Origin: Escherichia coli
GTDB taxonomy: Bacteria > Pseudomonadota > Gammaproteobacteria > Enterobacterales > Enterobacteriaceae
DNA length: 3,000 bases
NCBI RefSeq assembly: GCF_003334385.1
Contig: NZ_QOWN01000097.1
Reading direction: 5' to 3' (one strand)
The position numbers were made by a program, and so were the translations under genes. Of the stretch, positions 1 to 3,000 are shown piece after piece (the first letter of the stretch is position 1; every line of letters starts with the position of its first letter). The notes beneath the pieces were generated by a model that did not search any database, was not told where the DNA came from, and worked only from the letters and a program-made list of their open reading frames with translations.

Positions 1-3000
1 ACGCTGGCGCGGCTGTGGGGGGCGCTGCCGCCGGATATCCGGTTAAGCCCGCATCTTTACCTGGCGACCAACAGCGCACAGGGGCCGTGGTGGATACTGG
101 GGTGGTCTGAGCGGGTGCCGGGTGCTGAGGACGTACTGCCAGCGCCGCTGCCGCCGTACCGGGTGCTTACCGGGATGGCGGACCGCTTCGGGCGGACGCT
201 GACGTACCGGCGTGAGGCCGCCGGTGACCTGGCCGGGGAAATCACCGGCGTGACGGACGGTGCCGGGCGGGAGTTCCGTCTGGTGCTGACCACGCAGGCG
301 CAGCGTGCGGAAGAGGCCCGCACCTCTTCGCTATCTTCTTCTGACAGTTCCCGCCCTCTCTCAGCCTCAGCGTTCCCCGACACACTGCCCGGTACCGAAT
401 ACGGCCCCGACAGGGGTATCCGCCTTTCGGCGGTGTGGCTGATGCACGACCCGGCATACCCGGAGAGCCTGCCCGCTGCGCCACTGGTGCGGTACACGTA
501 TACGGAAGCCGGTGAACTGCTGGCGGTATATGACCGCAGCAATACGCAGGTGCGCGCTTTCACGTATGACGCGCAGCACCCGGGCCGGATGGTGGCGCAC
601 CGTTACGCGGGAAGGCCGGAGATGCGCTACCGCTACGACGATACGGGGCGGGTGGTGGAGCAACTGAACCCGGCAGGGTTAAGCTACCGCTATCTTTATG
701 AGCAGGACCGCATCACCGTCACCGACAGCCTGAACCGGCGTGAGGTGCTGCATACAGAAGGCGGGGCCGGGCTGAAACGGGTGGTGAAAAAAGAACTGGC
801 GGACGGCAGCGTCACGCGCAGCGGGTATGACGCGGCAGGAAGGCTCACGGCGCAGACGGACGCGGCGGGACGGAGGACAGAGTACGGTCTGAATGTGGTG
901 TCCGGCGATATCACGGACATCACCACACCGGACGGGCGGGAGACGAAATTTTACTATAACGACGGGAACCAGCTGACGGCGGTGGTGTACCCGGACGGGC
1001 TGGAGAGCCGCCGGGAATATGATGAACCGGGCAGGCTGGTATCGGAGACATCGCGCAGCGGGGAGACAGTACGCTACCGCTACGATGACGCGCACAGTGA
1101 GTTACCGGCGACGACAACGGATGCGACGGGCAGCACCCGGCAGATGACGTGGAGCCGCTACGGGCAGTTGCTGGCGTTCACTGACTGCTCGGGCTACCAG
1201 ACCCGCTATGAATACGACCGCTTCGGCCAGATGACGGCGGTCCACCGCGAGGAAGGCATCAGCCTTTACCGCCGCTATGACAACCGTGGCCGGTTAACCT
1301 CGGTGAAAGACGCACAGGGCCGTGAAACGCGGTATGAATACAACGCCGCAGGCGACCTGACTGCCGTTATCACCCCGGACGGCAACCGGAGCGAGACACA
1401 GTACGATGCGTGGGGAAAGGCGGTCAGCACCACGCAGGGCGGGCTGACGCGCAGTATGGAGTACGATGCTGCCGGACGTGTCATCAGCCTGACCAACGAG
1501 AACGGCAGCCACAGCGTCTTCAGTTACGATGCGCTGGACCGGCTGGTACAGCAGGGCGGCTTTGACGGGCGGACGCAACGTTATCATTATGACCTGACCG
1601 GAAAACTCACACAGAGTGAGGATGAGGGACTTGTCATCCTCTGGTACTACGATGAATCGGACCGTATCACTCACCGCACGGTGAACGGCGAACCGGCAGA
1701 GCAGTGGCAGTATGATGGCCACGGCTGGCTGACAGACATCAGCCACCTGAGCGAAGGCCACCGTGTTGCCGTCCACTATGGCTATGACGATAAAGGCCGC
1801 CTGACCGGCGAATGCCAGACGGTGGAGAACCCGGAGACGGGGGAACTGCTGTGGCAGCATGAGACGAAACACGCATACAACGAGCAGGGGCTGGCAAACC
1901 GCGTCACGCCGGACAGCCTGCCGCCGGTGGAGTGGCTGACGTATGGCAGCGGTTACCTGGCGGGAATGAAGCTGGGCGGGACGCCGCTGGTCGAGTATAC
2001 GCGGGACAGGCTGCACCGTGAGACGGTGCGCAGCTTCGGCAGCATGGCAGGCAGTAATGCCGCATACGAACTGACCAGCACATACACCCCCGCAGGCCAG
2101 TTACAGAGCCAGCACCTGAACAGCCTGGTATATGACCGTGACTACGGGTGGAGTGACAACGGCGACCTGGTGCGCATCAGCGGCCCGCGACAGACGCGGG
2201 AATACGGCTACAGCGCCACGGGCAGGCTGGAGAGTGTGCGCACCCTCGCACCAGACCTGGACATCCGCATCCCGTATGCCACGGACCCGGCGGGCAACCG
2301 GCTGCCGGACCCGGAGCTGCACCCGGACAGTACACTCACAGTGTGGCCGGATAACCGCATCGCGGAGGATGCGCACTATGTCTACCGCCACGATGAATAC
2401 GGCAGGCTGACGGAGAAGACGGACCGCATCCCGGCGGGTGTGATACGGACGGACGACGAGCGGACCCACCACTACCACTACGACAGCCAGCACCGCCTGG
2501 TGTTCTACACGCGGATACAGCATGGCGAGCCACTGGTCGAGAGCCGCTACCTCTACGACCCGCTGGGACGGCGAATGGCAAAACGGGTCTGGCGGCGGGA
2601 GCGTGACCTGACGGGGTGGATGTCGCTGTCGCGTAAACCGGAGGTGACGTGGTATGGCTGGGACGGAGACAGGCTGACGACGGTGCAGACTGACACCACA
2701 CGTATCCAGACGGTATACGAGCCGGGAAGCTTCACGCCGCTCATCCGGGTCGAGACAGAGAACGGCGAGCGGGAAAAAGCGCAGCGGCGCAGCCTGGCAG
2801 AGACGCTCCAGCAGGAAGGGAGTGAGAACGGCCACGGCGTGGTGTTCCCGGCTGAACTGGTGCGGCTGCTGGACAGGCTGGAGGAAGAAATCCGGGCAGA
2901 CCGCGTGAGCAGTGAAAGCCGGGCGTGGCTTGCGCAGTGCGGGCTGACGGTGGAGCAACTGGCCAGACAGGTGGAGCCGGAATACACACCGGCGCGAAAA
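1..3000 (+). CDS. Rhs family protein (RHS/YD-repeat polymorphic toxin core), internal fragment; both the start and the stop lie outside the window
   Basis: Frame +1 is uninterrupted by stop codons for all 1000 codons (my manual translation, line by line). The translation carries many copies of the Rhs/YD motif (Y-x-Y-D-x-x-G-R-L/V), e.g. [13 protein letters not shown] (nt 625-663), [12 protein letters not shown] (1207-1242), [13 protein letters not shown] (1267-1305), [10 protein letters not shown] (1582-1611), [12 protein letters not shown] (1777-1812), [14 protein letters not shown] (2377-2418), [12 protein letters not shown] (2548-2583). The window starts [20 protein letters not shown] and ends ...[15 protein letters not shown], with [26 protein letters not shown] at 2737-2814. 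GC content is high with GC-rich third positions, as known for Rhs cores. Paralog (rhsA/B/C/D-like) cannot be determined from the core alone, so the gene symbol is left empty. Confidence 0.95.
490..2694 (+). repeat. YD-repeat (RHS repeat) array at the protein level within the Rhs CDS; about 25-28 degenerate units of roughly 20-25 residues, not a nucleotide tandem repeat
   Basis: Recurring Y-x-Y-D / YD-x-x-G-R-L motifs in frame +1, at approximately aa 164-178, 189, 209-221, 229-238, 276-286, 318-326, 340-346, 359-362, 403-414, 423-435, 445-453, 468-473, 488-496, 509-516, 528-537, 549-556, 571-577, 593-604, 709-726, 735-745, 793-806, 825-836, 850-861 and 885-898. Unit boundaries are approximate and read by eye. 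Confidence 0.75.

Follow-up and report, generated by a model that had tools for sequence, protein, structure and literature searches.

An Escherichia coli rhsD core with rhsE as its near-identical partner and a mosaic pattern best explained by exchange between the two loci

The stretch of 3,000 nt of Escherichia coli DNA analysed here (the window) encodes part of an Rhs core, and the question it raises is how many near-identical copies of this core share a genome and how much of it can be placed with short reads. The initial annotation had taken the window for probably one of several near-identical cores, in which case short reads would be unplaceable across the whole 3 kb. A narrower answer appears very probable to us: the window is an rhsD core with one near-identical partner, rhsE, the two genes form a mosaic that arose by exchange, and the source genome holds both copies.

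Identity of the window and organisation of RhsD

The window corresponded to nt 460-3459 of the 4281-nt rhsD coding sequence and was open in frame 1 throughout, with no stops (Table 1). It differed from K-12 rhsD by 4 mismatches over all 3000 nt (99.87% nucleotide identity) and from rhsD of the closed SCU-104 genome by a single mismatch at position 723 (99.97%). In the closest genome the likeness to K-12 rhsD (b0497) extends to the ybbP and ybbC flanks, to the 1426-aa architecture and to the way the gene relates to rhsE, rhsA, rhsB and rhsC; among the four SNPs that set the two apart, those at 1149, 1182 and 1206 are in the rhsE state in the window. The GC content was 0.60-0.69 in every 500-nt bin, and the core is GC-rich relative to a host chromosome that averages about 0.51. 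Minus-strand ORFs of up to 285 aa had no support and were rejected, since long ORFs of this kind are expected in a coding region of 64% GC. Two short imperfect direct repeats were the only DNA repetition inside the window, and a search for inverted repeats gave none; as DNA, the YD repeats are degenerate, and they bring no further mapping ambiguity.

Table 1. Features of the window (positions in nt, 1 being its first letter)
Feature	Position	Strand	Remarks
rhsD coding sequence, internal part	1..3000	+	codons 154-1153 of 1426; N-terminal plug region and YD-repeat shell
rhsD-specific segment	34..145	+	within a 123-nt (41-codon) stretch without counterpart in canonical rhsE; unique read anchor
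near-exact block common to full-length rhsE	226..1241	+	1 mismatch (723); missing from the K-12 rhsE fragment
three linked SNPs in the rhsE state	1149..1206	+	G1149, T1182, C1206; common rhsD allele C, C, T
divergent rhsD/rhsE patch	1242..2153	+	66 mismatches in 912 nt, 92.8% identity; locus-identifying for short reads
exact repeat with rhsE (K-12 and SCU-104)	2154..3000	+	848 nt, of which 847 fall in the window

SCU-104 RhsD, which carries the window with one base difference, scored 2787 bits against the NCBIfam model NF041261 RHS_core (cut-off 2000) over residues 1-1258. Together with the near-identity to rhsD, this score bore out the Rhs core assignment of the initial annotation, and by the profile match of this protein the window belongs to the NCBIfam RHS_core family, E. 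coli clade I rhs. The translated window gave eight significant Pfam RHS_repeat matches (E <= 0.001) at aa 212-525. TIGR01643 YD_repeat_2x matched in six stretches. DUF6531 was clear in RhsD (E = 3e-19) and the RHS motif (PF03527) was also present, while Pfam PAAR_motif matched residues 2-29, upstream of the window, only weakly and in part (E = 0.058 and 0.59). Rhs_assc_core (TIGR03696) matched residues 1181-1258 of SCU-104 RhsD, and the core-end motif DPxG...PxxxxDPxGL occurs in SCU-104 rhsD beyond the window ('...YDPLQGRYITQDPMGL...LNPLQQIDPMGL'), followed by a DUF4329 domain and then by ybbC. In the closest genome rhsD is flanked by ybbP upstream and ybbC downstream.

RhsD was compared by sequence with the solved T6SS Rhs effectors Tse5 (8cp6), RhsA of P. 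protegens (7q97), Tse15 (8uy4) and Rhs of Salmonella bongori (8qja-d); itself without a structure, it matched them significantly along the YD shell and also over the C-terminal plug of the RHS core (E = 1e-121 to 3e-57), and differs from them in its toxin domain, DUF4329. In a mechanism of shell and autoproteolysis taken from the Tse5 structure paper (PMC10684867), the YD-repeat shell of RhsD would enclose a C-terminal toxin, predicted in the closest genome to be the DUF4329 domain, with YbbC as the putative immunity gene product. RhsD is a probable substrate of a type VI secretion system: SCU-104 has a vgrG directly upstream of rhsE and a full tss (T6SS) cluster elsewhere in its genome. Against this route of delivery stand the weak PAAR match, the lack of a vgrG next to rhsD, where the upstream neighbour is ybbP, and K-12, which is not known to have a T6SS. 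The biology seen here is already known, and the window brings nothing new on their function.

Copies of the core in closed genomes

Six Rhs cores made up the full census of the closed SCU-104 genome, in agreement with the earlier statement that E. coli carries several of them. Their identity to the window was 99.97% for rhsD, 97.48% for rhsE, 76.7-77.5% for rhsA, rhsB and rhsC and about 76% for a T6SS-linked rhs gene, so that exactly two copies, rhsD and rhsE, stood at about 93.5% or above. K-12 contained one full copy and a 1.26-kb fragment, its truncated rhsE pseudogene, which covers window 1739-3000 with 97% identity overall and 100% over 2154-3000; local BLAST found no second copy of window 1-1738 above 80% identity in K-12. 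The K-12 rhsE is a 3' fragment without vgrG, whereas the closest genomes have a full-length rhsE with vgrG before it. Three or more copies at 95% or above in one genome, as had been expected from the annotation, were found in neither K-12 nor SCU-104. Nor did the closed genomes show the lone Rhs copy that would have spoken against the annotation, since they have two near-identical copies and three or four distant ones. The two loci lie on the same strand, about 1 Mb apart in K-12 and 1.2 Mb apart in SCU-104. About 2.4 Mb of SCU-104 is inverted with respect to K-12; no sign of an rhs-mediated origin of this inversion was seen, the flanks of rhsD, rhsA, rhsB, rhsC and rhsE matching those of K-12.

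Rhs elements have been grouped by Hill and co-workers into the three subfamilies ABCF, DE and GH, according to the summary in PMC2935791. Identities of 99.87% to K-12 rhsD, 97.1-97.5% to rhsE and 76.6-77.5% to rhsA/B/C assign the window to the RhsD-E subfamily, and rhsE is, by these comparisons, the sole near-identical paralogue of its core. The original 'rearrangement hot spot' copies rhsA, rhsB and rhsC share family, length, domain order and GC-rich cores with rhsD and are 97.0-99.7% identical to one another, but reach only about 77% identity to the window, where their longest exact match is 32 nt. The initial annotation was thus mistaken in counting all five K-12 cores as near-identical. 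At 76-77% identity, and with exact matches to the window of 32-70 nt at the longest, rhsA/B/C and the T6SS-linked rhs do not confuse read placement, and rhsA/B/C are, as judged from these alignments, no source of mis-mapping for the rhsD window. They are probably also poor partners for efficient homologous recombination with it. The classical rhs-mediated duplication reportedly involved rhsA and rhsB, not rhsD.

The survey was extended to 5,426 complete E. coli genomes. With the window as query, default megablast returned a match in 3,872 of them, the median genome having 6 such places; these were rejected as a count of near-identical copies, as local BLAST shows that they include the 77% paralogues, and paralogues at 76-77% identity make up most of them. 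Short probes were used because E-values of the 77% copies underflow to zero with the full 3-kb query. The strict filters, which correspond roughly to an identity of at least 95%, were E <= 1e-175 for 400-nt probes and E <= 1e-300 for a 1400-nt two-piece probe, which was also run at E <= 1e-150. The probes at 601-1000, 1001-1400 and 2401-2800 were found at 4974 places in 3153 genomes, 5018 places in 3377 genomes and 3643 places in 2387 genomes respectively, and the probe at 1611-2010 at 2029 places in 1698 genomes (median 1 place per genome). The two-piece probe at E <= 1e-300 gave 6074 places in 3537 genomes, with a median of 2 and a maximum of 4. Copies at about 95% or above therefore numbered from 1 to 4 in a genome, the median being 1 or 2 according to the segment, so that of the claimed 'several near-identical copies' the multi-copy family stood and the near-identity of several members did not. 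SCU-104 had 2 places under the strict filter; a third place, seen at E <= 1e-150 and gone at 1e-300, was rejected as a third near-identical copy. The T6SS-linked rhs, about 76% identical overall and 81.5% identical over window 1155-2825, was the sole locus found that explains it.

Since the window is one base off its best record, the copy number of the source was derived from relatives, and on these grounds we infer two copies of the window core in the source genome. The source might instead be effectively single-copy, with rhsE absent or reduced to a fragment outside most of the window. About 42% of genomes with window 601-1000 at 95% or above have one place (25 of the 60 rows sampled), ECCWS199 has one place under the strict filter despite a 99.9% rhsD, and window 1-1738 is without a second copy in K-12. 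The window itself, however, argues for a partner: its rare 1001-1400 allele had 100% matches in only three records (SCU-104, RM10410 and 64EVA), all of them with two places, its SNPs at 1149-1206 are in the rhsE state, a hint of an rhsE donor in its ancestry, and 2154-3000 is exactly duplicated even in K-12. A single copy in the source is for these reasons unlikely.

Probable exchange between rhsD and rhsE

Full-length SCU-104 rhsE was 97.5% identical to window 146-3000, with the differences unevenly spread. Against the SCU-104 rhsE locus BLAST aligned window 1-33 and 146-3000 and left 34-145 unmatched, and the comparison of the full coding sequences placed a 123-nt offset between two aligned blocks. 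The window matched SCU-104 rhsE exactly at 226-722, 724-1241 and 2154-3000 (497, 518 and 847 nt), and inside SCU-104 rhsD and rhsE were identical over all 1016 nt of 226-1241. Mismatches were concentrated in the central patch (66 of 912 positions inside as against 6 of 1943 outside; Fisher p = 7e-27, the boundaries having been chosen after the data were seen), where identity was about 89.5% in the 200-nt bins spanning 1546-1945. In the K-12 reference the block at 2154-3000 is likewise exact, and the mismatches at 1746-2153 follow the same pattern. The stretch of rhsD/rhsE identity runs one base further than the window and stops ahead of the locus-specific core end and toxin.

For exact blocks of about 1 kb and about 0.85 kb on either side of a patch of 7-10% divergence, the best explanation is that the two loci have undergone recombination or gene conversion with each other, and the mosaic is a small but clear sign of exchange between Rhs cores at different loci. 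At its short end the exchange may be represented by the linked SNPs at 1149-1206, which look like a short conversion tract; the common C, C, T allele is carried by rhsD of K-12, ECCWS199 and Z1323CEC0016 and by the rhsE-locus copy of strain 3045. At its long end stands strain 3045, whose rhsE locus contains an rhsD-type core, including the 123-nt insert, joined at a single clean junction to rhsE sequence with the rhsE toxin end, and whose rhsD is truncated. Conversion tracts would thus range from about 60 nt to a whole core. Shell sequence would be swapped while each locus retained its own core end, toxin and immunity gene, the 3' limit of exchange falling at the codon after ...EPEYTPARK (window position 3001). 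That rhsD and rhsE are homogenised by recurrent gene conversion with a sharp, conserved 3' limit and toxin ends kept per locus is a proposal that we favour, though by no great measure.

The exact blocks and the strain 3045 gene could also be products of assembly or polishing in which paralogues were collapsed, the type of error of which the initial annotation had warned. The precedent is real, as 454 assemblies of a K-12 strain had breaks at both rhsD and rhsE, and an rhs misassembly proved to be the source of one false polymorphism (PMC3045373), and short-read polishing of long-read assemblies could partly create exact blocks. Yet the K-12 reference repeats both the exact block and the mismatch pattern beside it, the pattern is seen again in independent assemblies, and a gene with a 123-nt insert and one clean junction is unlikely to come from polishing. 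We consider such an artefact improbable, somewhat more so than a single copy in the source, and retain exchange between the loci as the explanation of the mosaic.

Both PMC2935791 and PMC3045373 cite Lin, Capage and Hill 1984 for the classical rhs-mediated duplication. The core is likewise the substrate, and the toxin end locus-specific, when an Rhs core recombines with orphan core fragments in Salmonella (PMC3967940) and in the model of C-terminal displacement (PMC2935791). The D/E junction lies inside the core, upstream of the DPxGL motif, and while the Salmonella case concerns a gene and its adjacent orphan, rhsD and rhsE are two full genes about 1.0-1.2 Mb apart.

Read placement and assembly

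Simulated 150-mers of the window were identical to SCU-104 rhsE in 1415 of 2851 cases (49.6%) and to K-12 rhsE in 698 of 2851 (24%); no 1000-mer of the window was identical to the rhsE paralogue. The exact repeats exceed short-read length (847, 518 and 497 nt against SCU-104 rhsE; 1016 and 848 nt within SCU-104). With two copies in the source, roughly half of the 150-nt reads of the window would be unplaceable; the locus would be anchored by the divergent patch in the middle and by window 1-225, and the link from core to toxin and immunity genes would lie beyond short reads. Placement failure across the full 3 kb was therefore an overstatement: 226-1241 and 2154-3000 are ambiguous, while 1-225 and 1242-2153 are unique in an SCU-104-like genome, and in K-12 the claim fails over window 1-1738, which is unique there.

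The reading of the window as one among some five near-identical Rhs cores, and as wholly unmappable, is hardly credible: the median of 6 places under default megablast and the five rhs elements classically described in K-12 (PMC2935791) point that way, but rhsA/B/C and the T6SS-linked rhs are too distant, with exact matches of 70 nt at most, the filtered probes gave maxima of 3-4 places and medians of 1-2, with exactly 2 in SCU-104, and the idea is already refuted for K-12 and SCU-104.

In variant calling and assembly of E. coli from short reads, window 226-1241 and 2154-3000 should be handled as a two-copy rhsD/rhsE repeat, while 1-225 and 1242-2153 are reliable markers of the locus. As the exact repeat runs just one base beyond the window and stops directly before the toxin end, short-read assemblies can join a toxin/immunity module to the wrong locus; the warning of mislinked downstream sequence was in this respect sound in kind, the 848-nt repeat with rhsE ending just before the toxin end. 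Automatic annotation can likewise call a gene at the rhsE locus 'rhsD', and the strain 3045 gene at that locus bears this name.

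The rhsD gene and its Rhs core

All 1000 codons of the window were open in frame 1 on the + strand and the GC content ranged between 0.60 and 0.69 along its entire length. A megablast search of 5,426 complete E. coli genomes placed the window in a gene annotated rhsD, the top record being strain SCU-104 (NZ_CP053284.1, 1210596-1213595) with a displayed identity of 100.0%. Direct comparison returned a single mismatch with SCU-104 rhsD, at position 723, and four mismatches with K-12 rhsD, at positions 989, 1149, 1182 and 1206. Position 723 is a C in the window and in K-12 rhsD and a G in both rhsD and rhsE of SCU-104. 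The window therefore stems from a close relative of SCU-104 outside the genomes searched, or represents another version of the sequence. The window corresponds to nt 460-3459 (codons 154-1153 of 1426) of the 4281-nt SCU-104 rhsD coding sequence, which is flanked by ybbP and ybbC as in K-12.

The full SCU-104 RhsD protein scored 2787 bits on the NCBIfam RHS_core model (cut-off 2000), eight significant RHS repeats were detected by Pfam in the window translation and strong matches (E = 1e-121 to 3e-57) were obtained with the solved Rhs shells of Tse5, P. protegens RhsA, Tse15 and S. bongori Rhs, thus confirming the Rhs assignment made in the initial annotation. Upstream of the window, the RhsD N-terminus carries a DUF6531 plug and a weak PAAR match, and the C-terminus downstream contains the RHS core motif and a DUF4329 domain. 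Because of these family and shell matches, the window is predicted by homology to encode most of a YD-repeat cocoon surrounding an autoproteolytically released C-terminal toxin, a mechanism described for Tse5 (PMC10684867).

The translation of positions 301-420 is serine-rich and of low complexity; this stretch falls in bin 1-500, whose GC content (0.69) is the highest among the 500-nt bins, and rhsA, rhsB and rhsC are only 70-73% identical to the window in 200-nt bins over 201-600. Downstream of ybbC, SCU-104 carries an orphan fragment of an Rhs core end that bears a separate toxin tip (L001 24254-24940, ylbH in K-12); this fragment aligns with the final 280 nt of the rhsE core at 82.5% identity and lies outside the window.

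Number of near-identical copies

Every Rhs core of SCU-104 was located by walking the annotation, and the six cores found agree with the 6 places returned by megablast for this record. None of rhsA/B/C matched the window exactly over more than 32 nt, and the longest exact match of the type VI secretion (T6SS)-linked rhs was 70 nt.

Rhs cores of SCU-104 and their identity to the window
Gene	Coordinates	Strand	Identity to window	Remarks
rhsD	1210137-1214417	+	99.97%	
rhsE	2433760-2437860	+	97.48% over 146-3000, ungapped, 72 mismatches	full length, intact vgrG ahead
rhsC	1440645-1444844	+	76.7-77.5% (range for rhsA/B/C)	
rhsA	96252-100385	-	76.7-77.5% (range for rhsA/B/C)	
rhsB	237775-242010	-	76.7-77.5% (range for rhsA/B/C)	
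T6SS-linked rhs	4131001-4135245	-	~76% overall, 81.5% over 1155-2825	complete tss cluster adjoining, at aspV

At the aspV / dnaQ-fadE site (L020 16002-43760), this sixth gene adjoins the complete type VI secretion cluster, so that the genome has the machinery that PAAR/Rhs effectors like RhsD and RhsE would need; the vgrG adjoining it is annotated as a pseudogene with an internal stop.

The five K-12 rhs loci were also aligned with the window. K-12 rhsA, rhsB and rhsC are 97.0-99.7% identical among themselves and 77.2-77.3% to the window, while the rhsE pseudogene covers only positions 1739-3000 at 97.1%, its 36 mismatches all falling within 1746-2153 and 2154-3000 being identical. No partner above 80% was found for positions 1-1738 among these five loci. 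This pattern is consistent with the published subfamilies ABCF, DE and GH (PMC2935791). The five copies ascribed to K-12 are therefore correct for the Rhs family as a whole and not for near-identical copies of this core.

Since the E-values of a 3-kb query underflow, the 5,426 genomes were surveyed with 400-nt probes at E <= 1e-175, which requires approximately at least 95% identity over the probe.

Places matched by filtered probes in complete E. coli genomes
Probe	Genomes	Places	Median	Maximum
601-1000	3153	4974	2	3
1001-1400	3377	5018	1	3
1611-2010	1698	2029	1	4
2401-2800	2387	3643	2	3
1001-1700 + 2301-3000 (E <= 1e-300)	3537	6074	2	4

In an evenly spaced sample of 60 genomes, probe 601-1000 matched two places in 35 and one in 25, and SCU-104 showed two places under the strict filter. 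From the filtered counts and this sample, one or two near-identical copies are the typical state, and never five; the several near-identical copies initially proposed were not borne out. A few genomes have 3-4 such copies, and plasmids carry a few (1-5 places per probe; 17 at default threshold). Overall, the earlier observation was confirmed in part and its interpretation partly supported. The gene and the repeat family are already well known. The correction is a quantitative one: two near-identical D-E copies with mosaic identity instead of five.

Mosaic identity and proposed exchange between rhsD and rhsE

The mismatches between the window and SCU-104 rhsE are strongly clustered, 66 of the 72 falling in 1242-2153 and 6 in the remaining 1943 nt (Fisher p = 7e-27, with boundaries picked after inspection). 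Identity within this patch is 92.8%, decreasing to 89.5% in the 200-nt bins 1546-1745 and 1746-1945, and exact runs extend over 847 nt (2154-3000), 518 nt (724-1241) and 497 nt (226-722). When rhsD and rhsE of SCU-104 are compared with each other, they are identical over 1016 nt and 848 nt. A 123-nt segment around positions 34-145 is present in rhsD and absent from rhsE. Identity ends one base past the window, where ...EPEYTPARK is followed by AHLYH in RhsD and VHFYH in RhsE; over the following 315 nt the two genes share about 90% identity, and their toxin domains are unrelated. The 3000/3001 boundary does not coincide with the PxxxxDPxGL core end but precedes it by about 315 nt.

Positions 1149/1182/1206 read G/T/C, the rhsE state, in the window and SCU-104 rhsD, and C/C/T in rhsD of K-12, ECCWS199 and Z1323CEC0016; the window allele over 1001-1400 was found in just three records. 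Strain 3045 carries at its rhsE locus (yncH-vgrG-rhs-ydcD; NZ_CP103570.1, L018 4932-9155) a gene that shares 99.87% identity with the window across all 3000 nt, has the rhsD-specific 123-nt insert and changes to rhsE sequence exactly after ...TPARK, ending in the rhsE toxin. Its junction coincides with the 3000/3001 boundary, and PGAP labels it rhsD. IS26 truncates the rhsD gene proper of this strain (L022 9361-11868) after 2508 nt; the gene now adjoins nfsB, so the DNA normally downstream seems to be missing or rearranged.

These patterns are consistent with recombination or gene conversion between the two loci. Polishing may have produced exact blocks in individual assemblies, but the blocks are also found in the reference sequence of K-12, and polishing would be unlikely to create a 123-nt insertion. 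Uneven constraint by itself does not account for the blocks, as rhsD and rhsE differ at both synonymous (41) and non-synonymous (20) codons. The sequence comparisons thus offer clear evidence for a putative core exchange between rhsD and rhsE with a fixed 3' boundary, which is the sole mildly new point. Exchange of this kind has been rated infrequent, if occurring at all, and no natural rhs-mediated chromosomal rearrangement had been reported at that time (PMC2935791); in an evolution experiment, rhsB and rhsC showed putative gene conversions (PMC5809092).

The two genes are directly repeated, at a distance of about 1.0 Mb in K-12 and 1.2 Mb in SCU-104. Unequal crossing-over between them is conceivable; no sign of it was found, and the rhs flanks of SCU-104 agree with those of K-12. 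Compared with K-12, SCU-104 is inverted, or was assembled so, over some 2.4 Mb surrounding the replication origin (stretches L011, L012, L013, L014, L015, L019 and L020), K-12 regions ~2.94-3.03, 3.6-3.84, 4.34 and 0.24 Mb all occurring in reversed order, which places rhsA and rhsB on the strand opposite to rhsC, rhsD and rhsE. As the Rhs flanks are intact, this inversion is apparently not rhs-mediated.

Read placement and assembly

Simulated error-free reads drawn from the window were identical to SCU-104 rhsE in 54.5% (100 nt), 49.6% (150 nt), 40.5% (250 nt), 14.7% (500 nt) and 0% (1000 nt) of cases, and to K-12 rhsE in 24.5% at 150 nt. The expected failure of unique short-read placement therefore applies to about half of the window in a two-copy genome and not to 1-225 or 1242-2153. 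The warning of mislinked downstream sequence was well founded, since the 848-nt exact block lies between a locus-specific core middle and a locus-specific toxin end, which short inserts cannot phase. In published 454 assemblies of a K-12 strain, both rhsD (522485-526765) and rhsE (1525929-1527962) were break points, and an rhs misassembly accounted for one false polymorphism (PMC3045373).
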